Shown in pieces: positions 37,616-53,654 of a stretch of DNA of 64,000 nt; position 1 is the stretch's first letter, and the number at the start of each line of letters is the position of its first letter. The notes beneath the pieces were generated by a model. It saw nothing but the letters and a program-made list of their open reading frames with translations, did no database searches and was not told the DNA's origin. This stretch comes from Candidatus Omnitrophota bacterium (GTDB lineage: Bacteria; Omnitrophota; Gorgyraeia; B26-G9): the NCBI GenBank assembly GCA_043805415.1, contig JAZDHZ010000027.1:71542-135541 (forward strand). Direction: 5' to 3'. Made by a program: the position numbers and the translations under genes.

Positions 37616-38707
37616 CTAAAAATCTCGATATTCGCGGCGAATAAAAAGACCACTTGCTACAGGATCTAAAAATAGTTTTAAGAAATAATTCACGTCTTTT
37701 ACAAATCTACGCGGAACATAAATTATATCTTCTGATTCTAATATCAGGTTATCGCTTAAATCAGCTAGTTTTAAAGCCTTATTTAAATCAAGCCGTTTAG
37801 GCTCAGGTTTTTTCAAACCACCTTTAACTAGGATTACACTCCTAGTGACAGCATCTTCAGTAAATCCACCGGATAAGCCAACTGCTTCTAATATGGTCTT
37901 TCCCGCGGCTAAGGTATATACTCCCGGGCTATTTACCTGACCTAGGATAATAACTCTATTGCCGGCAAAAGTATTCACTGAAACAGATACTTGTGGATAT
38001 TTGATAAACTCACGCAATCCTTGCGTTAAAATTTCAGTAAAATCACTAATTGTCTTGCCAGCAGCTTTAACTTCTCCGACCAAAGAAAAGGATATTAAAC
38101 CGTCAGGACGGACAATAACCTGATCATCCAAATCGGGATTCTGCCAAACCTTGATCCCCAGGACATCCCCATTGCCGATTACATATTTAGAACTACTTTT
38201 TTGGTTTAAATCAGGACTGTTTGGGAAAACACTTAAACTTACTTCAGGAGGAGAAAGTACTGCTTTTTCTTCTTTTTTAATATCAGAAATAGCCTTTTGA
38301 AATTCGTCTTGGGCTTCACTAAACCGCCCCTGATTATAAAGAATCAAGCCTCTTTTATAATGCTGATCATTTTCCTTTTCCGTGGCATGAATTGCTTTTT
38401 GAAATTCATTTTCCGCTTCTTTAAACTTGCCTTGCTCATAAAAACTTAAACCTTTTTTATAATAATCCTGCTTCTCCGTATTTGTTTGAAGTATTGCTTT
38501 CTGAAATTCCTGCTCAGCTTCTTTATACTGCCCGGATTTATAAAAAAAAAGCCCTTTTTGATAATGATCCTCACTCTGAGCTGAATCTGAATCAGCATAG
38601 CCACGCTGCCCAAAGAAACACAAACAGGCAATAACTGTAATTAAGCCGATAAAAAAAGAATGTTTCGAAAACAGCTGATGGGTTTTATTTGCTTGGGAAT
38701 TTTTCAT
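37616..38707 (-). CDS. Polysaccharide export protein (Wza/GumB-like Poly_export + SLBB) with three N-terminal TPR-like repeats
   Basis: 363 aa. Signal/anchor N-terminus. Three tandem ~33-aa repeats (HYQKGLFFYKSGQYKEAEQEFQKAI / DYYKKGLSFYEQGKFKEAENEFQKAI / QHYKRGLILYNQGRFSEAQDEFQKAI). A Poly_export core follows (GNGDVLGIKVWQNPDLD...VRPDGLISFSLVGEVKAAGKT). Last gene of the secretin operon. Confidence 0.65.
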   Translation of the reverse strand: MKNSQANKTHQLFSKHSFFIGLITVIACLCFFGQRGYADSDSAQSEDHYQKGLFFYKSGQYKEAEQEFQKAILQTNTEKQDYYKKGLSFYEQGKFKEAENEFQKAIHATEKENDQHYKRGLILYNQGRFSEAQDEFQKAISDIKKEEKAVLSPPEVSLSVFPNSPDLNQKSSSKYVIGNGDVLGIKVWQNPDLDDQVIVRPDGLISFSLVGEVKAAGKTISDFTEILTQGLREFIKYPQVSVSVNTFAGNRVIILGQVNSPGVYTLAAGKTILEAVGLSGGFTEDAVTRSVILVKGGLKKPEPKRLDLNKALKLADLSDNLILESEDIIYVPRRFVKDVNYFLKLFLDPVASGLFIRREYRDF

Positions 38708-38725
38708 TTCTATATTTTAGGACTC

Positions 38726-41716
38726 TTATTCATTTATAAAACCAGCCTTTTCTTCTCTTAAGCTAATTATTTCCTCTGCCATTACAACTTTTTCGCTTTC
38801 ACTCTTTTCCAGATCAGCTCTTACAGCATTAAGCGTTTTTTCCAAATCTTTTATTTTTAGATTCTGTTCTTTCATTTGATCAAATAGCTTTTGGTATTTT
38901 TCCATGATTTGCTGTTTTTGATTAGATAATTCTGCTATCTGATCAATTACTTCTTGGTTAGAATCTGTCTTAATAGTTGTCTGACTCTGCAGATCAGCTA
39001 TTTTTGCCTGAGCAGCCGCTAATTGAGAAGATATCTCCTGTCTTTGATTATTTGAAGACGCGATTTCTGATCGCAATTGAATTTGCACGCTCTCTTTTTC
39101 TTTTAACAATGCTTCCAGTTGTTTTAATTGTTCAGTTAAAGAGTTAATATCATTGCTGCTTTGTTTAATCTCCGCGAGTTCTGCTACCACTGCTTTACTT
39201 TTACTTGTTAAGTCTTTTTCTATTTTAGCCAGCTCTTCGGCTTTGGCCTGCGCCGCAGAGAGATTAGTTTGGGTATTTTTTAATGCATTTTCTAAAACAA
39301 CTAAATCCTGATTTTTTTGTTTAAGTTCAGCTTCCGCGTTCTGAAACTGATTTTTTAATTGATCATAAGACGCGCGCAACGCATTATTTTCCGCTAATAT
39401 CTCTTTCTGACTGCTTTTCGTGTTTCCTAAATCATTGATTTTTTTAGTTAAAACTTCGATCTCTTTTTGCTTACTTGATATTTGCTTAAGTTGCTCTTGG
39501 GTCTGAGCTGCTAAAGCTAGCTTTTCCTGCATAATCAGCTTTTTATCTGCTTCTAAACTATCGGCTTTAGCTGCTATTGCTTGTTTGCCCTGTTCAACAC
39601 CACTCAGCTGCTTACCCAGCGCGTCTAACTGTTTATTCTGTTCAGCATTCAGCTGGATTAGTTTATTATTTTTTTCTATTATAACTTCAAACTCTTTTCC
39701 CTTGGCTAAAAGATCATTTTTTAATAAGGAAACTGTGTTCTCGACTTTAGCCAAAGATTTATTCTGACTAGCAAGCCCCACATTTTCTTTTGCTAAAGCA
39801 TCAAGCTCTATTCTCAACTTCGCGATCTTAGCTTCCAAATCAGCACGTTCAAGGTTTATTTTAGCAAAATCCTTGCTCATTTTTTCAGATTCAAGCTTAG
39901 AATTATTAAGGTCGGTTTTAAGTTTTTCCTGTTCCAAACTTGCTGTCTGATTTTGTTGTGCAAGATTATCGCGTTTTGAATTAATATTTTTATTTTCTTC
40001 CTCTAATGAAGAGATGTTCTTATTTAAAACAAGTATTTGCGACTCTAAATCTTTCTTAACTTTTTGGGTTTCTTTTAACTGCTGACTCAAATCATCTTTA
40101 ACTTCATTTGATTTTGCGATCAAAGTCTCTAATTCGCTGATTCTTTTTTCTAATTTTTCCGCGGAAGAATTCTTTTTTCCGGAAATAGATTTTTCTTGCT
40201 CCAGCGCCTTATTCGTTTTTTCAAGCATACTATTCTTCGTTAAAATACTATCTTTTTCTTGCTGATTCAAAGCAAGTTCTTTATCAATGCGCGCAATCTG
40301 CGCGTCCTTTTTAATAATATCTGCGTCTTGCGATTTTAGGGTTTGCTTAACTTGGTTTAATTCTGACTGCAGATTTTCAATCTTTTCTAATTCTTGTTTA
40401 TAATCCCGCGCAAGCTTTTCTTTTTCTTTAGCAAGAGCATCTTTTTGTTCTTGCAAACCTTTGCTATTATTTTGAGTAAGCAGAATTTGTTTATTTAGCT
40501 CCTCATTTTTCTTATTTAATCCAGCCAATTCAGCTTCAAGCGTTTGTGTTTTTTCCGCTTTATCATCCAAAGAAGCTTGCATTGCTTTAAGCTTATTCTC
40601 AAGCTGCGCTACAACTTTATCGTCTTTTGCCTGTGTTTCTGTTTCAGCCAAAAACGCTTCTTTTTCTTTTTGGATTTGAGCGATTTGATTTTTTGCTTGC
40701 TCGAGCTCTTGTTTTTTCTGATCAAGCTGAACCTGCATTTGTTTTATCTGCTCAGTTACTTGTCCGGAATCAGCACTTTTACCGGCTAATTCTTCTTGCT
40801 GTTTTTCTAATGTCATAATAATTTGTTCAAACAACTTATTCTCGAGAACAATCTTTTGTTTTTCACTTTCTTTAAGCCCAAGGTCTTCTTCGGCTTTTTT
40901 AATATCATGCTGCAATTGTTCTTGTTTTTTATTTTGCGCTAAATTGCTTTCATTTACTTTTCTTAGCGCTTCCTCTAAATTATTCTTTTCCGCTTTAAGG
41001 ATTTCATAATGCTCAAGCTGATCCCTAATAGATAATGCCGGCTTTTCCTCATAAGCTTCTTTTTTAGCTCCAAACAAACCTCCTAAAAAAGTATTATCGC
41101 TAGTTACTACCGGTTTAATCGTGACATCTTTTTTTTGATATAAATCTATCAGCTCTTGTTTGACAACTAAAAGTTCTTCTGCTAAAGATTTTTTCTCATT
41201 ATTAACAGTTTCGATCAAAACCTGGTCTTGCTGCAGCCGCTCATCTTTATTTATTAAAGTTAGTTCTAATTGTTTTATCTTCTGAAACAGCTCTTCTTGG
41301 GGCTTGTTCTTTTTCTTTAGCTTGGCATTAGCCTTTTCTAATTTATCCTGAAATTCTTTTCTTTCTTTTTTTATTCTTTTAATCTCGTTTTGTAATAATT
41401 CGTTTTCATTATCTAAACGTTCACTGTCATTGATTATTTTTCTAGCATCTTTACCTGAATCGCTTTGCTTTGGGATTTCGCTTAACTCTTTTTTAATTAT
41501 AACTCCAGCCGGATTTTCACTCGCATGCAGCACTTGTCTTGCTTTTTCAAACTCAGTCTGAGCTTCTTTATACTTACCCAGTTTATATAATTCCTGAGCT
41601 CTAATATAATGCTTATCATATTCTTGCGAATAAGCAGAAGCTAAATTACAGAAAATAAATACAACTGCGCATAAAATCACACTTAAAACTATGTTTCTTT
41701 TTTTAAAGCTAAGCAT
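38726..41716 (-). CDS. Giant secreted coiled-coil protein (996 aa) with N-terminal TPR-like motif
   Basis: Signal peptide (MLSFKKRNIVLSVILCAVVFIFCNLASA). One TPR-like unit (YIRAQELYKLGKYKEAQTEFEKARQV) paralogous to the Wza-like N-terminal repeats. About 900 aa of uninterrupted K/E/Q/L-rich heptad coiled coil. No ATPase head domains. Confidence 0.5.
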   Translation of the reverse strand: MLSFKKRNIVLSVILCAVVFIFCNLASAYSQEYDKHYIRAQELYKLGKYKEAQTEFEKARQVLHASENPAGVIIKKELSEIPKQSDSGKDARKIINDSERLDNENELLQNEIKRIKKERKEFQDKLEKANAKLKKKNKPQEELFQKIKQLELTLINKDERLQQDQVLIETVNNEKKSLAEELLVVKQELIDLYQKKDVTIKPVVTSDNTFLGGLFGAKKEAYEEKPALSIRDQLEHYEILKAEKNNLEEALRKVNESNLAQNKKQEQLQHDIKKAEEDLGLKESEKQKIVLENKLFEQIIMTLEKQQEELAGKSADSGQVTEQIKQMQVQLDQKKQELEQAKNQIAQIQKEKEAFLAETETQAKDDKVVAQLENKLKAMQASLDDKAEKTQTLEAELAGLNKKNEELNKQILLTQNNSKGLQEQKDALAKEKEKLARDYKQELEKIENLQSELNQVKQTLKSQDADIIKKDAQIARIDKELALNQQEKDSILTKNSMLEKTNKALEQEKSISGKKNSSAEKLEKRISELETLIAKSNEVKDDLSQQLKETQKVKKDLESQILVLNKNISSLEEENKNINSKRDNLAQQNQTASLEQEKLKTDLNNSKLESEKMSKDFAKINLERADLEAKIAKLRIELDALAKENVGLASQNKSLAKVENTVSLLKNDLLAKGKEFEVIIEKNNKLIQLNAEQNKQLDALGKQLSGVEQGKQAIAAKADSLEADKKLIMQEKLALAAQTQEQLKQISSKQKEIEVLTKKINDLGNTKSSQKEILAENNALRASYDQLKNQFQNAEAELKQKNQDLVVLENALKNTQTNLSAAQAKAEELAKIEKDLTSKSKAVVAELAEIKQSSNDINSLTEQLKQLEALLKEKESVQIQLRSEIASSNNQRQEISSQLAAAQAKIADLQSQTTIKTDSNQEVIDQIAELSNQKQQIMEKYQKLFDQMKEQNLKIKDLEKTLNAVRADLEKSESEKVVMAEEIISLREEKAGFINE

Positions 41717-41738
41717 TATTTATTCCCCCGACAAAAAC

Positions 41739-43418
41739 TCAGTTCCCCATTAATAGTTCGATTTCTTTTTTTAATTTATCTGCTTTAATTTTATCTTCTG
41801 AAGTGTTTTCCTGTTTTTTAAAACGCTCAACCATATTTTCTTGCAAAGTGATATTTAACTGTGTTGAGCGGCTTAGATCTTCCAATGTTCTTTTTTGACG
41901 TTGCTGAATATCCACAAGCTCTTGTTGTTTTACTTGAAATTCCGCTTTTAATATCGCCAGTTCGCTTTTCAGGCTTAAGATATCTTTATTCTTAGCGATA
42001 ATTTCTTCTTCCCTGCGCGATAAAAGCTCGCTCATCTGAAGCATCTGGTTCTTCAGGTTAGAATAGAGCATATTGGCATTGTTAAATTCTTTATCTTGAT
42101 AGAATCCGCGTTCTTCTAAACTCTGTTTTGCCCTAGCTAATGCCGCTAACTCTTCATCTTTTCTTTTTAATGCCGATTCCTTATCCACCAAGGAATCATT
42201 AAGCATCTTAATTCTATCTTTAAGCAAAGCATATTGTCTGGCTTCAGTCGCCCCTTCGGGAAAAGATAAATCTGATCCGGCTTTAAGCGTCTTTTCTAAT
42301 TCACTAATTCTCTGTTTGGATGTTTCCAGTTCAACTTCCTTACTCATTAAAAGTTCTGAAAATTTAACTACCTGGGCTTTAGCTGTATCATAAAGAGCAT
42401 AAGCTTTGTTTAAATCTGGTTGCCCTGATTTAAGCGGAACCTCACCAATGGGTGGTAATATATCCGCAAAGGAATCTTTCTTCAAGGCATTAATAATTTT
42501 TTCTTGTTCTTTTAATTTTTTCTCAGCCTCGGCGAGATCTTGTTCCGCCAAATCTCGCTCGCTTTCGATTTTCTTGATATTACGCGCTTTTCTCTGTACA
42601 TCTAATAACTCTTCTTCAAGACTTGCTATTTTTTCACTTTGAAGATTTAATTTTTCATTTATTTTAGACCTTGCGCTGCTAAACTGGACAACCTCTCTGT
42701 TGAGCGAACTTCTTTGCGATTCTTTTTCTTTGAGCTGGCTGCGTAAATCATCAATTTGCGCTTTTAATTTATCATTCGGAGTTTGCGCTGATATCTTTAA
42801 TGCTTGCTCTAATTTAGTCTCAACTTTTCCCATTTCCGTTTCAAGCTTAGCTATTTTTTTTTCTAGAATTTTTTTCTCTTTATTCGAGTTAGCATTTTCC
42901 TGAACAAGATTTTTAATCTCGCTGTCTTTTTCTTTTAATAATTTATCAGTTTTCTCTATTTTTTCTAAATAGCCGCGAATTGTCTTATCGCTTTTCGTGG
43001 CATTTAACTCATCTTTAACCTCTTTCAAGGTTTCCAAAGTTTTAGTAAATTCGCGAGTAAGGGAATTTACCCGATTATTTAGACTTAGATTTGATTCCTG
43101 CAAAGAATCCTTTTCTTTTTTAACTTGCGAATATGAAACGTCAAGCGTTTGAAGTTTTTTTTCATTTTCCGCATATTGTTCTTTAATATTTTTTACATCT
43201 GACAGCCCAGCAAGTTCTTTTTTAAGTACTGAGATCAGCGTTTCTTCTTCGTTTTTTTCAATAGTTAGAGCTACTTTTTCCTTAAATAATAATTCAGCAC
43301 GCTTTGCTAATATTTCCGCTCTATTTTTCGTTTCGATAAAGCGGAATACAAAAAATATAACTCCGCCTGCTACTAATATTAATAGGAAAAACGCTATTCC
43401 TTTTAAGAATTTACTCAT
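41739..43418 (-). CDS. Membrane-anchored coiled-coil protein (559 aa)
   Basis: N-terminal TM helix (IAFFLLILVAGGVIFFVFRFI) followed by a long heptad-repeat coiled coil. Confidence 0.45.
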   Translation of the reverse strand: MSKFLKGIAFFLLILVAGGVIFFVFRFIETKNRAEILAKRAELLFKEKVALTIEKNEEETLISVLKKELAGLSDVKNIKEQYAENEKKLQTLDVSYSQVKKEKDSLQESNLSLNNRVNSLTREFTKTLETLKEVKDELNATKSDKTIRGYLEKIEKTDKLLKEKDSEIKNLVQENANSNKEKKILEKKIAKLETEMGKVETKLEQALKISAQTPNDKLKAQIDDLRSQLKEKESQRSSLNREVVQFSSARSKINEKLNLQSEKIASLEEELLDVQRKARNIKKIESERDLAEQDLAEAEKKLKEQEKIINALKKDSFADILPPIGEVPLKSGQPDLNKAYALYDTAKAQVVKFSELLMSKEVELETSKQRISELEKTLKAGSDLSFPEGATEARQYALLKDRIKMLNDSLVDKESALKRKDEELAALARAKQSLEERGFYQDKEFNNANMLYSNLKNQMLQMSELLSRREEEIIAKNKDILSLKSELAILKAEFQVKQQELVDIQQRQKRTLEDLSRSTQLNITLQENMVERFKKQENTSEDKIKADKLKKEIELLMGN

Positions 43419-43428
43419 TAGGATTCTC

Positions 43429-44580
43429 TTACTTTAGGTTAACATCATTATAGATATCATGAATATATATAGAAAAATTTTTACTTAAATCAACTGGCTT
43501 ATTTTGAAGTAATTTTTGCCCATGCGCGTCATGTGTCACTTTAATAACAGGCCTAAGCGGCATCTTTGGGTTTTGGCTTGATACTTTGGCGATTTCCTTA
43601 GTATTAAGCCGAATTATTGTATTTAATGGAAATATACCCACGCAATCAATCAAGGTCTTAAGAAATTTAGGCTCGAATTTATTTTTTTCATTTATAAGAT
43701 CTTTTATTATTTTTAGATACCCTAGTTTTTTTCTATAAGGCCTGGCATGATTCATTGCCTCATAGACATCCACAACCGCGATTAGTCTGGCATATTCACA
43801 TATTTCTTTATCTTTTAATCCGTACGGATATCCTGAGCCGTCAACACGCTCATGCTCTTGGTGAATAACATCAAAAATTTCAAAATCTAAATCTTGAGCG
43901 ATTTTTTTTAAAACATCTTTACCTAAAATTGGATGTTTCTTAATTTCCCAAAAATCATTATCACTGAAACGCGCGGGACGACTGATAAGATTATCAAAAT
44001 TTATCAGGCCAATGTCATGAACAAGCGATGCTAATCCAATTTGTCTAAGACGAGTATGATCATAATTTAAGTCCATTGCCAGCCGCAAACAAAGAATGCA
44101 GACATTTACAGAATGCTGATAAATATACCCCTTTTCAACAGAATACTCCGTGAAAAAAAGTCTTAGTAATTGATTTGGATCATCTTTGAGAAAAGCAATA
44201 AACTGTTTAATTATATCTTCTGCTGCAAGAAAACAGCCTTTTTGCCCATTATCCAAAGGGTTCATTATTCCCTGGACAAAAGAAATTGCCCTTTGATACG
44301 CATCAACTACCTGGGCAGGTTCAGCCTCAGCTTTTTCCTCAATCTCTGAAAAAGTTTCCTCAGTCTTGTCCTGATCAGCAACAACAGTCTCTTGCTGGAT
44401 TACCTCAGGTTCAAGCGGCTTAATTTCAGTTTTTTTTATCCTTAACTCAGGGTTTATTTCTTGCGCTTGCGGCTGTTTTAATTCAATATCAGGAGCAGGC
44501 CGCTCAGATGCCTGAGCCTTACTTACCTTACTCAGCCTGTTTTTTTTTGCCTTTTTAAGAATATCAGATATTTTTAGCAT
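43429..44580 (-). CDS. HD-GYP domain phosphodiesterase (stand-alone, no receiver domain)
   Basis: 383 aa. Low-complexity acidic N-terminus. HD motif (LASLVHDIGL) and the diagnostic HHERVDGSGYPYGL (HD-GYP) motif. Confidence 0.75.
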   Translation of the reverse strand: MLKISDILKKAKKNRLSKVSKAQASERPAPDIELKQPQAQEINPELRIKKTEIKPLEPEVIQQETVVADQDKTEETFSEIEEKAEAEPAQVVDAYQRAISFVQGIMNPLDNGQKGCFLAAEDIIKQFIAFLKDDPNQLLRLFFTEYSVEKGYIYQHSVNVCILCLRLAMDLNYDHTRLRQIGLASLVHDIGLINFDNLISRPARFSDNDFWEIKKHPILGKDVLKKIAQDLDFEIFDVIHQEHERVDGSGYPYGLKDKEICEYARLIAVVDVYEAMNHARPYRKKLGYLKIIKDLINEKNKFEPKFLKTLIDCVGIFPLNTIIRLNTKEIAKVSSQNPKMPLRPVIKVTHDAHGQKLLQNKPVDLSKNFSIYIHDIYNDVNLK

Positions 44581-44629: not shown

Positions 44630-45259
44630 CTATTGTACTGGTGATTTTTCTTTGCTGATAAATGTAAAATCCTCTGATTCACTGGGAGCTTTTTGTTGAC
44701 TTAAAACACCGCGCATTTCGGTCATATTCTCGTCAATTTCTCCGCGCCAGAAAACAATCTGTCCATTTTCTGAGCTTTGCATAGTTTCCCAAATCGTCAT
44801 TCCATTCTCTTTTATGGTTAAAGTATAATTTGTCGCTGTAAAACCTTTATCACTAAACTGCTGCGAGTAAAATTTATTGTCCTTAAAAATCAGATCATCT
44901 TTTCTGATTTTTCCGCCTCCAGCTATAGGAAAAATCTCGGTATTCCAGCTGGTATTATTAAGATTTTTTCTTACTTTTTCACTCAATGCTTTTGCTTCAA
45001 TTTGTGAAAGATTTGCTTTCTCCTGTGAAGCAACGGGTTTTACTGATTTTTCTTGGGTTACTGGTTTTACTGGTTTTTCCTGGATTACTGGTTTTTCTTG
45101 GATTACTGGATTAGCTTGTTTTTTAGACTCCACCTGAATTTCTTCTGTTTTTTCCTCAGGAGTATCAGATTTTTTCTTACCCCACAAGGCATGTCCGTTT
45201 TGCGCTGTGCTGATTACAAATACTGCGATTAAAACCATACAAAACACTGCTTTTTTCAT
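44630..45259 (-). CDS. Secreted protein with PVIQEK/PVKPVTQEK tandem repeats
   Basis: 209 aa. Signal peptide (MKKAVFCMVLIAVFVISTAQNGHA). A hexapeptide tandem repeat region, then a C-terminal globular part. Confidence 0.4.
   Translation of the reverse strand: MKKAVFCMVLIAVFVISTAQNGHALWGKKKSDTPEEKTEEIQVESKKQANPVIQEKPVIQEKPVKPVTQEKSVKPVASQEKANLSQIEAKALSEKVRKNLNNTSWNTEIFPIAGGGKIRKDDLIFKDNKFYSQQFSDKGFTATNYTLTIKENGMTIWETMQSSENGQIVFWRGEIDENMTEMRGVLSQQKAPSESEDFTFISKEKSPVQ
45040..45125. repeat. Short tandem repeat, period about 18 bp (coding; PVIQEK units)
   Basis: The 18-bp unit ggattactggtttttc(c/t)t recurs consecutively on the plus strand inside gene 44630-45259. Confidence 0.5.
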
Positions 45260-46261: not shown

Positions 46262-48071
46262 CCTTTAAAGGTTTTAGTGTTGGATAATATGCCTCAGCAT
46301 CTTTGTATTCCGGATATTCTTGATACAATTTTGGTTCTATTTTATGTTGTTTTTCAAACTCAGTCAAATCAGATTCGGTTGTCATTAGATTATAGTCTTT
46401 ATATCCCTTATCCTGATCAATCCCAAAATCTCGTTTATCTCCAGTATCTAATTTGTCTCCTTTTATAATATGAGCCGTAACCATAATCAGTAATTCGCTA
46501 CGGCTTGACCCCTTTGTCCCGGATTTAAACAGCATTCCCAAAATAGGGATCTTTCCTAAAAACGGTACTTCCTGAGAATTATCCGATTTTTCTTCACGGC
46601 ACAACCCGCCAACTGCCACAGTTGCCCCATCTTTTATCATTACGGTTGTCTCTGCAGTTGATGAATCAACAATTGGAATTCGGTTATTTTGCGCTGTGAG
46701 CAAAGTTCCGATCACACTACTTAGATCAGGCTTTATTTTTAAAGTAACATATCCTTCATCATTAATTGTCGGAGTAATATGAAGCTGTAAACCAACATCT
46801 AAAAAAGTTACCTCTTCAGAAACCGTAGTTGTTGTCTGCCCGGCAGTAGTGGTTGTTGTAATATAGGCTTGCCGCTCACCTACATGAATACGCGCCTCCT
46901 GATTATTTGTAACCGCAAGTTTAGGATTGGACAGAATTTTAACAGTCCCTAATGTCTTCAGATACTTTAACATAACATCATAATCATTATTACCCACTAC
47001 TCCAATATGCATTTCACCTGTGCCCACAGTTGGCACACTTGAAGCATAATCAGAAGTTGTTCCGCTAAAAGGGTACGATCCAATATTTCCGGTATCACTA
47101 AGCACCTCAGCTCTTGAACGCCATGCAGCAGTAGTGCTGTTTACCGATGCCAGCGGGGTAGAGCCAAGATAGCTTGTATTCCCGTCTTTATTCGCTAATT
47201 CAAACAGCCCCTCCCATTCAACCCCTTGGCTTAAATCATCAGTAAGCTTTATTTGAATTATTGTGGACTCAATCAATACTTCCCGAGTCTTTTGATCCAG
47301 TTTTTTAATAATCGCTTCAATATCTATCATTCTCTCAGGTAAAGTCTGAACAATAAGCTGATTCGTCCGTTCATCCGCCTTTATCGATCCCACTTTTTTC
47401 ATATCCAGCTGAGTCTTAAGCTGCTTTTCAATATCCTTCGCATTCGCGTACTGCAAATCAAAAACTCTTATCGTACTTTTGAATTCTAACAATTCCAGGG
47501 TTTTAGTTATTTCCACTATTTTTTCTGGTGTATCAAGCACAAGTATGGTTCCGGAATCAGCCTCAACTAATACTTTGCCAATTGTACTTTTTATCGAATC
47601 AATTATGGTATAGGCTTGATCGGGTATAACATATTTCAGGTGAAACACTTTTACCTGACGGATATCATCAAAGCCTTTTCCATAGCGCTGTTTGTATTCT
47701 TTTTCCGTCATTACATTAAAAATTGAACCTATTTTTTCATAAGCTAAACTATTTGACCTGATAACAATCTCAAATATATCTTCCACAGCCGCATCATTAA
47801 TCATTAAAGTTATTCGGCCGGAAACCTCTTTTGTCGGCACAATATTCAAATTAGCTTTTTGGGCAATATATTTAAGAGCATCTTTAACTTCAATATCCCG
47901 CAAGTCAAGAGAAATCAATTCTTTAGCAACCATAAGATTTGAAACAGCCACAGGATTAGCTGCTACTGCCGAGGCATACTCACGTAAAGCTAAAGCAGTT
48001 CCAACAGTATATAATATTGTAACTGTGAAAAAGAAAATAGTCAAAAATATAATAAAAATATATTGTTTCAT
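46254..48071 (-). CDS. Secretin (GspD/PilQ family), paralog 1
   Basis: 605 aa. Signal peptide. Secretin_N/STN domain (ISLDLRDIEVKDALKYIAQKANLNIV). C-terminal secretin domain (ARIHVGERQAYITTTTTAGQTTTTVSEEVTFLDVGLQLHITP...TVMIKDGATVAVGGL...VPFLGKIPILGMLFKS). Confidence 0.8.
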   Translation of the reverse strand: MKQYIFIIFLTIFFFTVTILYTVGTALALREYASAVAANPVAVSNLMVAKELISLDLRDIEVKDALKYIAQKANLNIVPTKEVSGRITLMINDAAVEDIFEIVIRSNSLAYEKIGSIFNVMTEKEYKQRYGKGFDDIRQVKVFHLKYVIPDQAYTIIDSIKSTIGKVLVEADSGTILVLDTPEKIVEITKTLELLEFKSTIRVFDLQYANAKDIEKQLKTQLDMKKVGSIKADERTNQLIVQTLPERMIDIEAIIKKLDQKTREVLIESTIIQIKLTDDLSQGVEWEGLFELANKDGNTSYLGSTPLASVNSTTAAWRSRAEVLSDTGNIGSYPFSGTTSDYASSVPTVGTGEMHIGVVGNNDYDVMLKYLKTLGTVKILSNPKLAVTNNQEARIHVGERQAYITTTTTAGQTTTTVSEEVTFLDVGLQLHITPTINDEGYVTLKIKPDLSSVIGTLLTAQNNRIPIVDSSTAETTVMIKDGATVAVGGLCREEKSDNSQEVPFLGKIPILGMLFKSGTKGSSRSELLIMVTAHIIKGDKLDTGDKRDFGIDQDKGYKDYNLMTTESDLTEFEKQHKIEPKLYQEYPEYKDAEAYYPTLKPLKDE

Positions 48072-48082
48072 GGGTATAAAAA

Positions 48083-50293
48083 TTATTTAACATTTTCCTG
48101 CGCACCCCAGATAAGCAAATATTCCTTTGCTTTCTGCGCATCCTTATCATTAGGAGCCAGAGCAAGATAATGCTTGAAATGAGAAAGCGCTTTTAATTCA
48201 TCAATCAAATATCTTGAATATATAATCCCCAGATTATAATGGGTACTAGCATCCCGATCATTATACTTTAAAGCGTCTTGAAATTCCGACACTGCTTGTG
48301 TGTATTCCTGGCGCTGCGCGTGAAAAACCCCTAAGTTATAATGCAAAGAAGCATTCTGTGAACGCAAATCGCTTAATTCTTTCTCCTGCTTTGATAACCG
48401 CTCCGGCAGGGACTTTATCTGAAGATCAAGATTCTTGTTTTGAGTATCAAGATCACTAATATTCCGCTTCAGCTCATCTATACTATCTGAATATTTAGCG
48501 ATTAACTTAATCTGCTGGTCTTCTTTTTTCTGCCAATCACGCTCTTTTTTATAAAAAATCTGGACTTGTTTAGCTAAACTATCTTTATCTTTTTCAAGCT
48601 TTGCCTGAACCTCTTTCAAAGTATTATATTTATTTTTATTCTCTTCGAGCTGGTTAAGATAGTTTTCTTTATCCTTGTTGGAAAGTTCGTTTTTCTTTTC
48701 CAGTTCTCCGGCAAGTCCTCTAAATTCCTTTAACTCTTCACTCAACTTATTTTTATTCTCTTCCAATTTTACAATATAATCCTGTTCCTTATCCCTAACC
48801 AGCTGCTCAGTAAGATTAAGCTTCTTATCTTTATCTTCTACCTGCTTTTTATAATCCGCGACCAGTGATAGCAGTTCCAGATTTTCATTGGCCATTTTAT
48901 TGTTTTTCTCTTTTAGCATCGTAAGCTCTTCATAGGACTTATTTAAAATCTTATTAAGATTGGTAAATTCGGTTTTAAGGAAATCTATCTCATCATTGGC
49001 AACCTGGATCCCTCCTGCTTCATTAGGATTTAAGCCTTTTGCCGGATCGCCCTTACCATCTAAACTGATTAGTTTGAGTAAAAGCTGTTTTTTCTCATTT
49101 ACCAATCTATCATTTTGGTTCATCAGGTTTTCGTTTTTCTTTCTCAGGTCTAACACATTTGCCTCAAAACTCTTATTACTTTCCGACACCAGTATCTTTT
49201 GCGCTGCTCTTTGCTGCAAAATCTCCTCATCTTTTTGCTGGATCAAAGCCTTCTGGGAAATAATTTGGGCATCTTTATCCTTCACCTGCTGCGCAAAAGA
49301 TTGCAAGTCTGCTTCATACAGCTCTTTCTGATCAGTATATTCTTTACTGTTTTCCTGAAGTTTTGCCAACTCTTCTTTTAGCGATTTTTCTTTCTGAATG
49401 TATTTTTCTGTATAATAGAGTTCCATTTGCTGCAATTGTTCTTGAGCAACCGAGAGTTGTTTTTCTTTTTCCGCGAATTGTTTTTGCGTCTGCGTAAGCT
49501 TATTCTGAAAATCCTGATTATCTGCCTCTATTTGCTGATTTCGATTAACAATAGTCTCGCCTTCTTTTTTCACAAGGATTAATTCATCTTTTAAAGATTT
49601 TTCCCTTTGCTGCATAGCCTCAAGCTGTTTTATGGTCTCTTGCTTTAAATTAGTCAGCTGGTCATTAAACGCTCTTTCTTTTTTATCCAATGTATCTTTA
49701 AGTGTTATTATTTGTTCTGACTGATCTTGATTCTGCTTGGCATATTTTTGTTCAGATTCAGTTTTTTTCCTATTATCTTCTTTAAGCGTTTCCGTTAGTT
49801 TACTTAATTCAGCGATTTGCTCAGTTTCTTTTTGTGATTTCTGAGCATAGTATGCTTCTTTTTTCTCAGAATCTTCCTTTAATCTATTATAATTATTCTT
49901 AAGCTCAGCTTTATTCTCTTCTAATGTACTTATGGCCACTTGCGATTTTGTAAACAGCTGATCTACATTATTAAGCTGCTGTCTGAGCGAAATAATTTCC
50001 CCTTCTTTTGCCGCGATAGCCTGCTCTTTTAAGGCCATCTGTTCGCTAAGAAAATCGTGTTTTGATTTAACCTGTTCATATTGCTTGCTTAAATCATCAT
50101 AAGCCTGCTGCTTAGTTTTCAGATCTTTTGCTAAATTCCCCATGTCTTTAGCGATTTTTTCCACCACACTTGAGACCTCTTCAGCAGCATCCTGGCCTTG
50201 AGATACTGAGCAAACAGTAAGACTCAAAGTAAATATCAGTGCAGAAATAAGCCCCCCACTTCCCCCTATTCCTTGCCATCGAATTTTTTTCAT
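48083..50293 (-). CDS. Secreted coiled-coil protein with C-terminal TPR repeats, partner of secretin 2 (paralog of 45287-46261)
   Basis: 736 aa. Signal peptide. About 600 aa of coiled coil. C-terminal TPRs (LHYNLGVFHAQRQEYTQAVSEFQDALKYNDRDASTHYNLGIIYSRY) nearly identical in pattern to the 324-aa paralog. Overlaps the secretin 2 stop by 4 nt. Confidence 0.5.
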   Translation of the reverse strand: MKKIRWQGIGGSGGLISALIFTLSLTVCSVSQGQDAAEEVSSVVEKIAKDMGNLAKDLKTKQQAYDDLSKQYEQVKSKHDFLSEQMALKEQAIAAKEGEIISLRQQLNNVDQLFTKSQVAISTLEENKAELKNNYNRLKEDSEKKEAYYAQKSQKETEQIAELSKLTETLKEDNRKKTESEQKYAKQNQDQSEQIITLKDTLDKKERAFNDQLTNLKQETIKQLEAMQQREKSLKDELILVKKEGETIVNRNQQIEADNQDFQNKLTQTQKQFAEKEKQLSVAQEQLQQMELYYTEKYIQKEKSLKEELAKLQENSKEYTDQKELYEADLQSFAQQVKDKDAQIISQKALIQQKDEEILQQRAAQKILVSESNKSFEANVLDLRKKNENLMNQNDRLVNEKKQLLLKLISLDGKGDPAKGLNPNEAGGIQVANDEIDFLKTEFTNLNKILNKSYEELTMLKEKNNKMANENLELLSLVADYKKQVEDKDKKLNLTEQLVRDKEQDYIVKLEENKNKLSEELKEFRGLAGELEKKNELSNKDKENYLNQLEENKNKYNTLKEVQAKLEKDKDSLAKQVQIFYKKERDWQKKEDQQIKLIAKYSDSIDELKRNISDLDTQNKNLDLQIKSLPERLSKQEKELSDLRSQNASLHYNLGVFHAQRQEYTQAVSEFQDALKYNDRDASTHYNLGIIYSRYLIDELKALSHFKHYLALAPNDKDAQKAKEYLLIWGAQENVK

Positions 50294-52107
50294 TCTAAAT
50301 CCTCTTTTTGGAGTTCAATAAAAGATCTTTTGTATGGTTTAAAACTTTTGATTTCCATTCCGCCCAAATCACTCGCCGACGGAGGAGGTAAATATGTTTG
50401 CTGCTCCTGTTTTATTCTATCCACCAGCTCATAATTCTGAGCTGGTTTTATCCCTGGATCCCCAATCATATCACCGTCTGAGGAAACCATTACCTCTCCG
50501 CTTATAATCGTAGGGGTAATCATAATTAATAATTCAGTAACATTTTTAGTATCATTTGTTTTCTGGAATAAAAGGCCGAGTATCGGAATACTGCTTAAAA
50601 AAGGAACTCTTTGTTTAGTTTGCGATTTTTCTTCTCTCCGTAATCCTCCGAGAACAAGCGTTGCCCCGTCTTTAATTAAAGCATTTGTTTCCGCTAAAGA
50701 AGTATCGACAATCGGAATATTATTGCCGGTAGGAGTAACTAAAGTCTGAATTACACTGCTAACCTCAGCCTTTATCTTTAAATCCACAAACCCGTCTTCG
50801 TTAATTCTCGGCACAACATCCATTTGAATACCAATATCGATAAACTGCACATCTTCCGATATTGTACTGGTAGATTGTCCGGTAGTTGTGGTTGTGGTAA
50901 CATATGCCTCACGCGCGCCCACGTGAATTCTTGCTTCTTGATTATTGGTTACCGCGATCTTCGGATTAGATAAAAGTTTTGAAGAAGTAACAGTTTGAAT
51001 ATAAGTTAAAACCATATCCAAATCATTACCACCGATAATACCCACATGCATTTGATTAAGACCAACGATACTGTTACTGCTATTATAAACCGATGTGGTT
51101 CCACTAAACGGATATGAACCAACATTGCCAACATCTTCGTAAACCTGCCGGCGGGAACGCCAATCAGCAGTTGCTGAGCCAACAGAAGAAAATGGAGCAG
51201 AGCCGATATAAGTCAGGCTGTTTGAATCTGAAGCGGCATCAAACAGCCCCTCCCATTCAATCCCTTTATCCAGCGCGTCAGATATCTTGGACTTTACAAT
51301 TTTAACATCAATTAAAACCTGTTTTGTTTTTTTGTCCAAAGCTTTGATCAATTCCGCGATTTCTTCCATTCTTTTCGGAAAGGTCTGGACAATCACTTGA
51401 TTACTCCGCTCATCGGCTTTAATTGATCCCACTTTTTTCCCGGAAAGCCTCTGATTTAAAGTCTCTTCCACAGTCTTAGCATTAGCATAATCCAGCGTAA
51501 ATACCTTTACAATACTTTTTTGTTCAAACTGTTCCAGAAGTTCTTCCATGCGCACAAGATTTTCTTTTGAATCCATACAAAGAATATTTCCCGATTCCTG
51601 ATCAACCAGTATTCTCCCTACTTCACTTTTAACAGCATCAAGCAGATTAAATGCCTGTTCCGGGATCGCATAATTAAGATGAAAAACTTTTACTTTTCGG
51701 ATATCGGAAAAACTTTTTCCATAGATCACTCTATATTCTTCTTGAGTCATAACATTATAGATATCGCCTATTTTATCATAAGCTAAGCCATTTGACCTAA
51801 GCATGATATCAAATACATCCTGTACCGGAACATCTTCAACCACTAAAGTTATCCGTCCCATAACAGATTTTGTGGTTACAATATTAAGTCCGCTTTTTAA
51901 GGAAAAATATTTTAAGGCATCATTAATATCTATTTTTCTTAAATCCAATGAGATTAACCCATCAATGCCCTTGGTTAAAGCCATAATCTTAGGCTGGGGT
52001 GGCGCAATCAAAGCGGTTCCGCTCCCAGCATCTTGTGCTGATAAATAATTAATCTTAAACAGGATAACAATGACAATTAATCCTATTCCAATATTTTTTT
52101 TCCTCAT
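50290..52107 (-). CDS. Secretin (GspD/PilQ family), paralog 2
   Basis: 605 aa. Same architecture as paralog 1 (ISLDLRKIDINDALKYFSLKSGLNIV; ARIHVGAREAYVTTTTTTGQSTSTISEDVQFIDIGIQMDVVP; LIKDGATLVLGGL...VPFLSSIPILGLLFQK). About 55-60% identity by eye. Confidence 0.8.
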   Translation of the reverse strand: MRKKNIGIGLIVIVILFKINYLSAQDAGSGTALIAPPQPKIMALTKGIDGLISLDLRKIDINDALKYFSLKSGLNIVTTKSVMGRITLVVEDVPVQDVFDIMLRSNGLAYDKIGDIYNVMTQEEYRVIYGKSFSDIRKVKVFHLNYAIPEQAFNLLDAVKSEVGRILVDQESGNILCMDSKENLVRMEELLEQFEQKSIVKVFTLDYANAKTVEETLNQRLSGKKVGSIKADERSNQVIVQTFPKRMEEIAELIKALDKKTKQVLIDVKIVKSKISDALDKGIEWEGLFDAASDSNSLTYIGSAPFSSVGSATADWRSRRQVYEDVGNVGSYPFSGTTSVYNSSNSIVGLNQMHVGIIGGNDLDMVLTYIQTVTSSKLLSNPKIAVTNNQEARIHVGAREAYVTTTTTTGQSTSTISEDVQFIDIGIQMDVVPRINEDGFVDLKIKAEVSSVIQTLVTPTGNNIPIVDTSLAETNALIKDGATLVLGGLRREEKSQTKQRVPFLSSIPILGLLFQKTNDTKNVTELLIMITPTIISGEVMVSSDGDMIGDPGIKPAQNYELVDRIKQEQQTYLPPPSASDLGGMEIKSFKPYKRSFIELQKEDLE

Positions 52108-52775
52108 CGCACTTCAACCTCTTCACCTTTATAACGCAAAATAACTCTATCTTTTTGAATGTCATAAACTTTGATATCATCAATCATATAACCCTTTTTA
52201 ACAAAATATGTTTTTTCCAATTCAGGGTTTTCGATTATCGCGTCCGGGTCATCGCCCCAGGAAATACCGACTAATTTCAGATTCTTAGTTAATTCTGCAA
52301 GCGGAGAAACCTTATTTTCCTTTTCTTCTTTAAAATCAACTTCTTTTCTTTTTACATATCCCATTTGAAAAAGATCTCTAACTTCAGCTTTTTGCAAATA
52401 ATACTCTTTTGGCTTTAAAAGTGAAATTGTCTCCGGAGTTTCACTAATTACATTTGCTTGGGCATCTTTACCCACAAGCAACGAAATCCTGTCTGAACCT
52501 TTAATTTCAATACTTATAAATACCGCTAAAGCAACTATTGCGATCCCAATCGCGCATTGCAAAAACAGATTAATCATCTTTAAATCTTGAAATACGCTTT
52601 TATCTGCCCCCCGCCGCTTATGACTAAAACTGTCTTTTAAAAAAGCGATTCTCGCGCGAAAAGACCCAAAGGATAGATATTTGTTTCCCATCTGAACCGG
52701 AGAAGGCATAGCGATCTTATTAATTTTACCTTCAATAATCTCTAATAAACGCTTTTCCGGTGTTTTTTCTGCCAT
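52104..52775 (-). CDS. Bitopic inner-membrane protein, possible GspB/ExeB-like partner of the ExeA-like ATPase
   Basis: 223 aa. ~60-aa cytoplasmic N-terminus, a single TM helix (INLFLQCAIGIAIVALAVFISIEI), and a ~130-aa periplasmic domain. It overlaps secretin 2 by 4 nt. The topology resembles GspB/PilN/PilO-class proteins. No sequence-level assignment. Confidence 0.3.
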   Translation of the reverse strand: MAEKTPEKRLLEIIEGKINKIAMPSPVQMGNKYLSFGSFRARIAFLKDSFSHKRRGADKSVFQDLKMINLFLQCAIGIAIVALAVFISIEIKGSDRISLLVGKDAQANVISETPETISLLKPKEYYLQKAEVRDLFQMGYVKRKEVDFKEEKENKVSPLAELTKNLKLVGISWGDDPDAIIENPELEKTYFVKKGYMIDDIKVYDIQKDRVILRYKGEEVEVR

Positions 52776-52793
52776 ATTTATTAATCCGCTACT

Positions 52794-53654
52794 TTAAACA
52801 ATTACACTTGGCTGTCTGACCCAATGCAATCCTTGTTGAATTTCTTCTTCCACGATTTCTTTGATTAAATCCTCATCAATAACAAATTTATTTCTCATAA
52901 CCAAACGTTTTAGCGCCTTATGACAGAGCATATTCATCCGTCGAGGATACCCCCTTGTGTTTTGATAAATCGCTTTTATTGCTGTATCTAAGAACAGATG
53001 CATATTGGATTTATATCCAGCTTGCCGAATGCGATACTCGATCATTTTGCGAGCTTCGTACTCATCCAAAGGATTTAAGGTAAATTTAAAACTTATTCGA
53101 TCAATAAAATTCGGGATATTAATCAATTTTGAGTGCAATTCCATTTGTCCCAATAATACCAGCTGGAGTAATTTATATTCATTGGTCTCATAATTAAGCA
53201 AAACCCGCAAACACTCTAGGGTCAGTTCATTTAACTTTTGCGCTTCATCAATAATCAGCACAATGGTTTTTCCTTCTTCAACCCCTTTTTGGAATAAAAA
53301 TTTTTCCAATGCCTCTTTGAGGTTAAGAATCCTCGGCCCCTCTTTAGCCACTTCAATATCAAAATTACGCGCAAGCGAAGTAAGAAATATTTCTTCATCA
53401 TTGTACACAGGGTCGAGCATCATATGACAAATAAACCCTTCCTGTGATTTTATCAGCTGATAAAGTTTACGGCTAAGCGTTGTCTTGCCAGTTCCGACAT
53501 CGCCTAAAATAACTCCTAGCCCGCGTTTAAGCCGCAGTTCAATCATTAAATTAGTTAAAGCCATGTCATGCTCTCTTGATTCATAAAAAAACATTGGGTC
53601 AGGACTTGTTGAAAAAGGCTCTTTATCAAATCCTAAAATTTTATAATAGCTCAT
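52794..53654 (-). CDS. ExeA/GspA-like AAA ATPase (general secretion pathway protein A family)
   Basis: 286 aa. Walker A GDVGTGKTT and Walker B VLIIDEAQ, in the AAA_16/AAA_22 arrangement characteristic of ExeA. No C-terminal peptidoglycan-binding extension. First gene of the operon. Confidence 0.65.
   Translation of the reverse strand: MSYYKILGFDKEPFSTSPDPMFFYESREHDMALTNLMIELRLKRGLGVILGDVGTGKTTLSRKLYQLIKSQEGFICHMMLDPVYNDEEIFLTSLARNFDIEVAKEGPRILNLKEALEKFLFQKGVEEGKTIVLIIDEAQKLNELTLECLRVLLNYETNEYKLLQLVLLGQMELHSKLINIPNFIDRISFKFTLNPLDEYEARKMIEYRIRQAGYKSNMHLFLDTAIKAIYQNTRGYPRRMNMLCHKALKRLVMRNKFVIDEDLIKEIVEEEIQQGLHWVRQPSVIV

Follow-up and report, generated by a model that had tools for sequence, protein, structure and literature searches.

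The gene cluster described here lies on the minus strand of a 64-kb window, meaning the whole stretch of DNA that was analyzed, from a Candidatus Omnitrophota MAG, and it is a conserved composite operon in which two secretin units from type II secretion are joined to one fused E unit. Each secretin unit consists of a secretin and a coiled-coil/TPR partner, with the start of the partner gene overlapping the stop of the secretin gene, and the two units have in common one MerR-like regulator, one GspA-like ATPase, one GspB/GspC-HR-like anchor, and one periplasmic beta-barrel protein (p209). Encoded in the E unit are an HD-GYP protein, a coiled coil with a membrane anchor, and an OPX protein of Class-3 type. 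The term S module is used below for the set of GspA-like AAA_22 ATPase, GspB/GspC-HR-like anchor, secretin, coiled-coil/TPR partner, and p209. The reading favored here, to which a probability of about 40% is assigned, is that the cluster encodes a secretin-gated, c-di-GMP-controlled exopolymer exporter in which the secretins stand in for the porin on which Class-3 OPX proteins depend. A preliminary description of this DNA had called the system undescribed, and no published account of the cluster was found in the literature on Omnitrophota (or Omnitrophica) in combination with secretins or type II secretion, or on OPX proteins in combination with secretins.

All 11 minus-strand ORFs of the preliminary description were recovered at exactly the coordinates it gave, with the tight junctions it had reported (18, -4, -4, 11, -8, 27, 49, 10, 22, and 18 bp), and its gene inventory and domain calls held up in Pfam and NCBIfam searches. 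The count of 11 stands for these ORFs but misses a twelfth conserved gene, a small ORF of 91 aa with a TTG start (53805..54080, minus strand) that encodes a MerR_1-like HTH protein. Its product probably comprises 76 aa, beginning at an internal ATG at 54035. The ORF gives a weak HspR/MerR match, homologs of 75-84 aa that are called as MerR_1 occupy the same position in six other loci (L001, L003, L039-L041, and L043), and the protein is 69-95% identical among close relatives. The best match to a sigma-70-like promoter in the region, made on the consensus only, lies 5' of this ORF (54155..54183, minus strand; TTGACA-17-TATTAT with TG, 11/12). A hairpin with a 16-bp stem and a T-rich tail (53675..53714, minus strand) lies in the gap that separates the MerR-like ORF from the ATPase gene and, judging by its form, may act as an attenuator or a terminator. 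No riboswitch, whether for c-di-GMP or another ligand, was detected upstream, Rfam returning only two tRNAs in the window. A hydropathy scan was consistent with the topologies proposed below for the cluster proteins.

Secretin 1 (46254..48071, minus strand) and secretin 2 (50290..52107, minus strand) are both 605 aa long and share an architecture of signal peptide, N0/STN-like domain, two Secretin_N domains, and secretin domain. The pair match Pfam Secretin at E values of 2e-47 and 2e-45, each with two Secretin_N matches and a weak STN match; they thus have the C-terminal secretin domain following ring-building N domains that defines the superfamily (PF00263). An AF2 model of secretin 1 shows a beta-rich secretin domain preceded by an N0-like domain and two N domains. 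This secretin also has a disordered insertion (residues 280-374) and a disordered C-terminal tail. In Foldseek searches the model matched PulD, ExeD, GspD, and InvG at E values of 1e-25 to 1e-21, the top match being PulD (6HCG, E 3e-25). Neither protein reaches the cutoff of the GspD equivalog family TIGR02517 (230 and 239 bits, cutoff 351), of the PilQ family TIGR02515 (250 and 242 bits, cutoff 284), or of the MshL equivalog family TIGR02519 (177 and 156 bits, cutoff 250), and no AMIN domain, a feature of PilQ, was found in them by Pfam. The two are 54% identical over 529 aa, slightly below the 55-60% given in the preliminary description. The old tandem duplication that had been proposed is borne out by a tree in which Sec1 and Sec2 form separate clades, with distant lineages within each, and in which both clades are distinct from the secretins of canonical Omnitrophota type II secretion operons.

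The first gene after the hairpin encodes a GspA/ExeA/MshM-like AAA_22 ATPase of 286 aa (52794..53654, minus strand) that is predicted to be cytoplasmic. It carries the P-loop of GspA and ExeA (Walker A GDVGTGKT, Walker B IIDEA; AAA_22 E 7e-18), and the transmembrane and peptidoglycan-binding part of ExeA is absent, as no hydrophobic segment and no further Pfam domain were found. Its best NCBIfam match is TIGR03015, at 182 bits with a cutoff of 324.5. The adjoining gene (52104..52775, minus strand) encodes a bitopic inner-membrane protein of 223 aa with a transmembrane segment at residues 71-89 and a predicted C-terminal GspB/GspC HR-like domain. The match of this protein to Pfam T2SSC (E 3e-5, 24.3 bits) is under the cutoff of 27, and a profile built from 25 sequences of the family matches the GspC HR domain (PDB 3OSS_C) at E 2.7e-4. 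In type II secretion, the HR domain of GspC connects the secretin with the pseudopilus platform. The 223-aa protein is a predicted secretin N0-binding anchor; the HR domain of GspB binds secretin N0 and works jointly with GspA (PMC9239104). Retention of a GspC-HR-like anchor, along with the fact that the secretin units otherwise belong to type II secretion operons, is an observation on the side opposed to polymer export.

The partner of secretin 2 (736 aa; 48083..50293, minus strand) has a signal peptide, a coiled coil of ~600 aa, and C-terminal TPRs, and its gene shares its first 4 nt with the end of the secretin 2 gene. The partner of secretin 1 (324 aa; 45287..46261, minus strand) is built in the same way with a coiled coil of ~200 aa, and there the overlap is 8 nt. 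The paralogy claimed for the two partners is detectable in the C-terminal TPR region of ~133 aa (35% identity, E 1e-23) but not elsewhere, and orthologs of the 736-aa protein range from 520 to 1300 aa. The suggestion that the partners are PilF/PilW-like lipoprotein pilotins had to be abandoned because they have no lipobox, and their scores against the PilF/PilW (TIGR02521; 33.5 bits, cutoff 154) and Tgl (23 bits, cutoff 225) families are weak and come from the TPRs only. The further suggestion that long coiled coils bridge the membranes fits the 324-aa protein, which would span ~30 nm when extended, but not the 736-aa (~90 nm) or 996-aa (>130 nm) proteins, which in that state would far exceed the periplasm. 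The 996-aa coiled-coil protein (38726..41716, minus strand) has a signal peptide and one N-terminal TPR-like unit; its gene is lineage-specific, being present in close relatives only (L004, L005, and L013). p209 (44630..45259, minus strand) consists of a signal peptide, a low-complexity linker of PV(I/K)QEK repeats, a helix, and a beta-barrel domain of eight strands. The family of the protein is specific to Omnitrophota and lacks a Pfam model, and the p209 sequence profile had no significant match in the PDB. A resemblance of the p209 barrel to the Cap15 cyclic-dinucleotide-receptor fold was set aside, as the match is generic to eight-stranded barrels and not meaningful for a secreted protein.

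The E unit begins with a stand-alone cytoplasmic HD-GYP protein of 383 aa (43429..44580, minus strand; HD_5 E 1e-22), in which the HD and DGxGYP motifs and an N-terminal peptide, MLKISDILKK, are conserved. In an alignment of the family (n=9), the first His of the HHE motif is replaced in all nine members, giving (Q)EHE or, in L041, IHE. The protein is, from its sequence, a candidate c-di-GMP phosphodiesterase. The next gene encodes a protein of 559 aa (41739..43418, minus strand) in which an N-terminal membrane anchor is followed by a long coiled coil, and in lineages of the window, L001, and L041 types it is kept directly 5' of the OPX gene. It has no detectable relationship with the 996-aa protein. 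A diverged Wzc/PCP was considered as its identity and rejected, with an hhalign probability of 10% and PDB matches to generic coiled coils only.

The OPX protein (363 aa; 37616..38707, minus strand) has a signal peptide, three TPRs, a Poly_export domain (E 3e-23), and one SLBB domain (SLBB_2, E 9e-11), and so belongs to the OPX family. The "Wza-like" label that it had been given is apt for Wza residues ~57-232 (domains D1-D2) but not for the outer-membrane helix, which is absent. Only 29 residues follow the SLBB domain and there is no D3/Wza_C helix, a structure at odds with Class-1 OPX (Wza); the architecture is that of Class 3, and Myxococcus xanthus WzaB (7XFD) is matched at E 7e-22. The conserved C-terminal tail ends in F or W, and no consistent lipobox was found across the family. 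No Wzp/PgaA-like beta-barrel porin is encoded within the cluster in any locus, and Wzc is encoded in L001 only. The protein scores 119 bits against TIGR03027 (cutoff 180). The ATPase and the OPX protein find their best NCBIfam matches in the two families of XrtA/PEP-CTERM exopolysaccharide loci, an observation on the side of export.

As sampled, the cluster is restricted to Omnitrophota and a few MAGs that carry other labels. The order secretin 2, secretin 1, HD-GYP, coiled coil, OPX was seen in every clade locus that extends far enough, and nine distinct loci besides the window have the arrangement of twin secretins and E unit, with secretin identity down to 54-57% and the remaining components diverged to 30-46%. 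The full-length loci of the clade are L001, L003-L005, L013, and L039-L041; L002 is a second record of L001, and L006-L008 are partial. Many independent Omnitrophota assemblies show this same order, which is beyond chance, and the linkage of the secretins to the HD-GYP and OPX genes, pointed out in the preliminary description, is conserved across the phylum. In several loci the stop of the coiled-coil gene overlaps the OPX start. The OPX gene is the invariant last gene of the cluster because the genes 3' of it vary; in L001 these are a Wzc-like gene (chain-length determinant/tyrosine kinase) and a Wzy_C (O-ligase-like) gene. The absence of pilin, traffic-ATPase, and platform genes, noted earlier for the cluster, extends to the entire 64-kb window, and the Sec1/Sec2 clade is free of pilin, GspE/F, and platform genes to a distance of ~10 kb in every locus. 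Three loci (L101, L095, and L087) have the E unit with two AAA_22 ATPases and no secretin, and the OPX protein therefore needs no adjacently encoded secretin. One of these secretin-less E units (L101) shares a 66-kb metagenome contig with a type II secretion-linked ATPase (L066).

On the exporter reading, the ATPase/anchor pair and the TPR partners would put both secretin pores together and fasten them through the cell wall. The OPX ring, held by its own TPRs and the anchored coiled coil, would take up periplasmic polymer, most likely a polysaccharide synthesized by enzymes encoded elsewhere, and hand it to a secretin pore, such that a secretin would substitute for the beta-barrel porin of other Class-3 OPX proteins. 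The HD-GYP protein would tie output to c-di-GMP, and the MerR-like protein would govern transcription. Class-3 OPX proteins require an outer-membrane partner (PMC12819527); only 77 of 2017 of them lie near a known porin, and the partner of most is unknown. The secretins are the sole outer-membrane proteins in the cluster, and secretins have been reported as exopolymer nozzles in cyanobacteria and myxobacteria (PMC12475490). Against the exporter reading, the cluster has no conserved gene for a glycosyltransferase, flippase, polymerase, or co-polymerase, its anchored coiled coil shows no homology to Wzc, and the E unit also occurs in loci that have no secretin.

The preliminary description had presented the apparatus as a candidate novel one, but its parts are not new: in this phylum, complete type II secretion operons as a rule close at the 3' end with the secretin/ATPase/anchor module. 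A series of MerR, AAA_22, HR anchor, and secretin genes ends complete GspE-F-G-K-PilM/N-PilO operons in many Omnitrophota loci (among them L027, L028, L048, L049, L055, L118, and L119), and in a random sample of 120 loci, 33 have a link to type II secretion genes. Two type II secretion operons (L014 and L043) also include a TPR partner and p209, and in the sister locus L010 two secretin genes are followed by a GspM-like (T2SSM_b-like) gene. These observations, the role of the HR domain of GspC/GspB as the secretin N0 binder, and the existence of the E unit without secretins all favor the main rival explanation, namely that the secretins and their assembly and tethering factors serve as outer-membrane gates for type II secretion-like or other type IV filament machines that draw their inner-membrane platforms and pseudopilins from genes at other sites, and that the HD-GYP/coiled-coil/OPX genes are an independent exopolysaccharide unit, co-transcribed only because both serve c-di-GMP-controlled surface behavior. 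We nevertheless hold this explanation to be somewhat unlikely. In all sampled loci that reach past the anchor gene, the canonical operon already has a secretin of its own, with ~35% identity to Sec1 and Sec2, which form a distinct old clade; the platform genes are missing from the ~10 kb around all loci of that clade; and the order of S module and E unit is kept across deep divergence. A comparison of matches to the PilM/N fusion with matches to the secretin and p209 had a single contig in common, L043, whose own module adjoins type II secretion genes, so that the overlap speaks for neither reading.

A protein-fiber or giant-adhesin apparatus, in which the secretins export or surface-anchor the coiled-coil/TPR proteins or neighboring giant proteins and the OPX-like ring and beta-barrel protein are periplasmic structural parts, is considered improbable. 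The signal peptide-bearing partners of 324 to 1300 aa would extend to ~30 to 180 nm, too long for a periplasmic strut, and according to a preprint, Omnitrophota giant genes have a PPIase and type II secretion-like loci 5' of them (10.1101/2023.11.21.568195). Yet no giant gene lies near the window cluster, there is no piston or pseudopilus to push folded proteins through a secretin, and the partners also trail secretins in type II secretion operons of the ordinary kind and there resemble accessory proteins more than cargo. Additionally, the conserved part of each partner is the C-terminal TPR region, as would be expected of a docking domain. In favor of this explanation, related secretin modules in other loci (L039, L040, L042, L123, and L164) adjoin giant ORFs and genes for periplasmic PPIase/SurA-like chaperones; the giant protein genes beside related single-secretin modules hint at protein cargo and count against polymer export. 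A role outside export, for instance that of a large, regulated pore in the outer membrane or a tether of the envelope, serving to take up DNA or macromolecules from prey or host or to keep the envelope intact, is very improbable: some orphan secretins are non-secretory, such as an M. xanthus paralog tied to osmoregulation (cited in PMC12475490), and Omnitrophota have been proposed to be predators or epibionts, but competence and uptake genes are absent in and near the cluster, and the OPX protein and the ATPase of exopolysaccharide-locus type point toward export.

Omnitrophota are ultra-small, probably host-dependent organisms that are thought to depend on surface machinery. The comparison of loci now defines a standard accessory set of their type II secretion, comprising a MerR-like gene, a GspA-like ATPase, and an HR anchor, to which some lineages add a coiled-coil/TPR partner and the p209 barrel. 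Read as a secretin-gated exporter, the cluster joins two open problems, the outer-membrane partner of Class-3 OPX proteins and the role of secretins in slime, and a phylum-wide operon with two dedicated secretins, a pore-less OPX protein, and a predicted c-di-GMP enzyme offers a concrete hypothesis for both. It is conceivable, if doubtful, that an OPX funnel with a secretin gate, assembled in the manner of GspA/GspB and tuned by c-di-GMP, constitutes a fourth architecture by which exported polysaccharides cross the outer membrane.

Among known systems, type II secretion with GspA/GspB (ExeA/ExeB, OutB) resembles the cluster in its GspD-like N0-N1-N-secretin architecture, GspA-family AAA_22 ATPase, and bitopic partner with a predicted HR domain. 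The cluster differs in that it has two paralogous secretins and lacks the GspC-M platform, GspE/F, and pseudopilins, in that the partners of its secretins are non-lipoprotein coiled-coil/TPR proteins and not GspS-type pilotins, and in that HD-GYP and OPX genes are fused on. In the Vibrio MSHA pilus, a secretin, a stand-alone ExeA-like ATPase, and a TPR protein (MshL, MshM, and MshN) are encoded together. The same three kinds of protein are present in the cluster, which lacks MshE/G and pilins and whose TPR partners carry long coiled coils. Membership of the XrtA/PEP-CTERM loci was rejected, given that the TIGR03015 and TIGR03027 scores fall under the cutoffs and that no exosortase was seen in any locus; PrsK/R/T and PEP-CTERM proteins were likewise not seen, and secretins are, to our knowledge, not part of XrtA loci.

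The AlgK/AlgE, PelB, BcsC, and PgaA modules share with the cluster the logic of a periplasmic TPR scaffold, an outer-membrane conduit, and a c-di-GMP enzyme (predicted here). Unlike in those synthase-dependent modules, the conduit in the cluster is a secretin and not a beta-barrel porin, and there is no synthase; matches to their families are weak and confined to the TPRs. The OPX protein of the cluster, like WzaB of the M. xanthus WzaB, WzpB, and WzcB translocon, has Poly_export and SLBB domains only and no outer-membrane helix, and its aromatic C-terminus is reminiscent of the Phe-Phe porin-binding motif of WzaB (PMC12819527). It differs from the WzaB translocon in its N-terminal TPR extension, its secretin neighbors, and the lack of a consistent lipidation signal. 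Secretins have lately been reported as required for the secretion of exopolymer slime, without a link to polysaccharide export machinery (PMC12475490). Those slime nozzles are ordinary PilQ and GspD, and the connection reported for them is not one of genetic linkage to OPX, whereas here dedicated paralogous secretins of predicted function share a cluster with an OPX gene. Should the architecture of OPX funnel and secretin gate be real, the slime nozzle phenomenon of secretins and the OPX-type polysaccharide pathways would for the first time be linked genetically, through this cluster.

The cluster is a conserved composite in which two type II secretion-derived secretin units are joined to a unit of c-di-GMP-related and outer-membrane polysaccharide export (OPX) functions, with no pseudopilus machinery nearby. 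All 11 minus-strand genes (37616-53654) of the preliminary description were recovered in an open reading frame check at exactly the positions reported there; the junctions, described as short or overlapping, measured 18, -4, -4, 11, -8, 27, 49, 10, 22, and 18 bp, and each domain call was borne out by profile searches. The inventory was incomplete, having overlooked a conserved small MerR_1-like gene (53805-54080, minus strand) that precedes the ATPase gene. Seven of ten looked-up products correspond to deposited proteins, whose genes lie on a 137,655-bp contig of the Candidatus Omnitrophota MAG. In profile searches, the ATPase (286 aa) matched AAA_22, the 223-aa protein weakly matched T2SSC/GspC, both secretins (605 aa each) matched Secretin, two Secretin_N domains, and weakly STN, the HD-GYP protein matched HD_5/HD and carries DGSGYP, and the OPX protein (363 aa) combined three TPRs with Poly_export and SLBB. 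The 736-aa and 324-aa proteins end in TPRs, and the 559-aa and 996-aa coiled-coil proteins matched solely SMC/Rad50/myosin-type coils. A hydropathy scan revealed no hydrophobic segment in the ATPase, HD-GYP, or MerR-like proteins, one internal transmembrane segment in the 223-aa protein (residues 71-89), an N-terminal anchor in the 559-aa protein, and N-terminal signal-like segments in all others, including both TPR proteins; a sequence scan detected no lipobox in any TPR partner in the window. Paralogy of the 324-aa and 736-aa proteins, as previously proposed, holds for their last ~133 residues but not elsewhere, and the 559-aa and 996-aa proteins were unrelated on comparison.

Upstream of the MerR-like gene is the region's best promoter-like site. 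On the coding strand, a single, weak terminator-like match occurs within the 11-gene block and none was found 3' of the OPX gene. The MerR-like frame is separated from the ATPase gene by a hairpin (53675-53714, minus strand; 16-bp stem, T-rich tail), which might act in attenuation or end a separate MerR transcript; an Rfam search returned no element at the cluster. A 123-aa frame antisense within the 736-aa coiled-coil gene (48960-49331, plus strand) is most likely spurious.

Conservation of this synteny across related genomes, a question raised in the preliminary description, was found in every sufficiently long locus of the clade (L001, L003, L004, L005, L013, L039, L040, and L041; L002 records the L001 locus again and L006-L008 are partial). 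The recurring order begins with the MerR-like gene, the ATPase and 223-aa anchor, and the second secretin (Sec2) with its long coiled-coil/TPR partner, and continues with the first secretin (Sec1), its TPR partner, the small beta-barrel protein p209, HD-GYP, the anchored coiled coil, and OPX. Some lineages have a second MerR-like gene between the Sec2 partner and Sec1, and some have a SurA_N-like gene; further variants carry a second ATPase, closer to TIGR03015, immediately before the HD-GYP gene, or PAS-histidine kinase and receiver genes upstream. The 996-aa gene is present in close relatives only. OPX is the invariant last gene, since the genes that follow it vary by locus: Wzc and Wzy_C in L001, a TpsB gene and giant frame in L040, a giant Peptidase_C25 frame in L039, a toxin-antitoxin pair in L041, and PGI in the window.

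The cluster is flanked by two GalT-like genes and GAPDH upstream (54823-57999) and PGI downstream (36152-37459). L003 and L004 share these flanks, as do L006 and L013 as far as those loci reach, and in L055 (523-2553) this GalT-like pair comes right after a canonical type II secretion operon. The arrangement may serve to supply sugar nucleotides or may simply be conserved genome order. Also downstream (31445-36134, minus strand) is a group comprising LexA, a cupin, and a DinB-type polymerase, adjoining an ECF sigma factor and zf-HC2 anti-sigma pair; the LexA and anti-sigma genes are likewise conserved on the downstream side in L003. Farther away, two adjacent short frames of 170 and 145 aa (20071-20965, minus strand) resemble an ABC transporter gene broken by a split or frameshift, the first retaining no more than the C-terminal portion of an ABC ATPase domain, and an envelope-related or uncharacterized run (2848-11500, minus strand) encodes a DUF748/AsmA-like protein, two B12/radical SAM proteins, DUF3999, and DUF2339.

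The AF2 model of Sec1 (mean pLDDT 69) comprises an N0-like domain, two ring-building N domains, and a secretin barrel, together with a disordered insertion (residues 280-374) and C-terminal tail. When this model was searched with Foldseek, type II secretins ranked on top (PulD, 3e-25, then ExeD and GspD); in a search by sequence, PilQ and GspD rank about level, and the window secretins fall below every NCBIfam equivalog cutoff (GspD, PilQ, MshL). The family has more than 1000 matches; identity is 53% or higher among the best 120, and all named matches come from Omnitrophota. The two window secretins are 54% identical, slightly below the 55-60% first estimated. The duplication is old, as had been proposed: in a neighbor-joining tree, first and second secretins form two separate clades, each spanning window-type and distant L001-type lineages.

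The secretin module originates from type II secretion. In the same tree, secretins of type II secretion-linked operons branch as successive outgroups of Sec1/Sec2. A metagenome scan for the invariant ATPase motif EPFSTSPDP sampled 120 loci, in 33 of which the ATPase lies directly downstream of type II secretion genes. By Pfam, the canonical operon begins with GspE, GspF, GspG, further pseudopilins, GspK, a PilM/N fusion, and PilO/GspM, and ends with the MerR-like gene, ATPase, anchor, and secretin; in L014 and L043 an operon of this type also includes the coiled-coil/TPR partner and p209. The L010 sister locus has two secretins followed by a GspM-like gene, and detached single-secretin modules adjoin PPIase/SurA-like chaperones and giant frames (L042, L123, L164). 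Giant frames (>1850 to >3480 aa) often follow related secretin modules (L039 19505-21794; L040 18193-21758; L042 13179-19901; L164 13080-20495), with a TpsB transporter nearby in L040 and PPIase/SurA-like chaperones in L164, L123, and L042, an arrangement that echoes a preprint (10.1101/2023.11.21.568195) in which giant genes of Omnitrophota are reported to have type II secretion-like loci and a PPIase upstream. Reduced clusters without secretins or coiled coils (L101 1122-4808, L095 249-1979, L087) run from a receiver domain through two AAA_22 ATPases to HD-GYP and OPX, and the 66-kb contig of L101 also holds a type II secretion-linked ATPase (L066). In an unrelated lineage (L117 1724-5182), a type II-type secretin (38% identity) precedes receiver and HD-GYP genes; the c-di-GMP link to secretin modules thus recurs.

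The ATPase belongs to the GspA/ExeA family of P-loop proteins and has intact Walker motifs, without the membrane and peptidoglycan-binding parts of ExeA; its best curated match, below cutoff, is TIGR03015 (XrtA/PEP-CTERM EPS-locus ATPase). A 25-member profile of the 223-aa family matched the GspC homology region (HR) domain crystallized with GspD N0-N1 (3OSS_C, E 2.7e-4); GspB/OutB binds secretin N0 through such an HR domain, with the GspA ATPase acting alongside (PMC9239104). In nine of nine aligned HD-GYP sequences, HD and GYP are retained and the canonical HHE is replaced by EHE (IHE in L041). The OPX protein had been called Wza-like, and this stands for Poly_export/SLBB; the alignment is confined to Wza residues ~57-232 and the protein also aligns to the Myxococcus xanthus Class-3 protein WzaB (7XFD, E 7e-22), and so it lacks any outer-membrane-spanning part. 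The C-terminal tail is conserved among its homologs and ends in an aromatic residue, and no lipobox is consistent across those compared.

The suggestion that the coiled coils bridge the membranes suits the 324-aa protein, whose ~200-residue coil would measure about 30 nm at about 0.15 nm per residue, near periplasmic width (33 nm in M. xanthus). At inferred lengths of about 90 nm in the 736-aa protein and 140-180 nm in its 955-1300 aa orthologs, the longer coils are too long to serve as simple trans-periplasmic struts.

Two secretin pores could be assembled and tethered by the ATPase/HR-anchor pair and the TPR partners, with HD-GYP coupling activity to c-di-GMP. The OPX protein by itself does not reach across the outer membrane, and no porin is encoded beside it; it is proposed to deliver an exopolymer to a secretin. 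This fits the requirement of Class-3 OPX proteins for an outer-membrane partner (PMC12819527), which is unknown for most of them, and the report of secretins as exopolymer nozzles in cyanobacteria and myxobacteria (PMC12475490); polymerization-driven extrusion needs no piston and would explain the absent pseudopilus. The mechanism as a whole is tentative (probability about 0.4). The cluster conserves no biosynthetic or co-polymerase gene; the anchored coiled coil, considered as a Wzc-like component, has no detectable Wzc likeness; and the HD-GYP/OPX unit also occurs away from secretins. The HR anchor, moreover, is normally the link to the pseudopilus platform. As the preliminary description had stated, profile searches found no pilin, GspE/PilB, or GspF/PilC gene in the rest of the 64-kb window. 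A second account, in which the secretins serve machinery encoded elsewhere, is considered somewhat less likely than the exopolymer mechanism. An apparatus for protein fibers or giant proteins is improbable, and other roles take up the little that remains.

Judged by sequence, the cluster lies outside every defined system compared, because its scores against the GspD, PilQ, and MshL equivalogs, TIGR03015, and TIGR03027 are all under cutoffs and the defining parts of those systems are absent. Type II secretion has platform and pilin genes, Wza an outer-membrane domain, Class-3 OPX systems a Wzp porin, XrtA/PEP-CTERM systems an exosortase, and pilotin systems lipoprotein pilotins, whereas the cluster has none of these. 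No paper describing a twin-secretin/HD-GYP/OPX cluster was found, and two Omnitrophota preprints deal with different type II secretion/Tad-like loci, located close to giant genes. The cluster is a genuine, conserved feature that is undescribed. It is built from known kinds of parts and is not categorically new; what makes it interesting is the specific and testable idea that secretins and OPX proteins act as partners. In its workings it would most resemble a Class-3 OPX pathway combined with a type II secretin and its GspA/GspB helpers.
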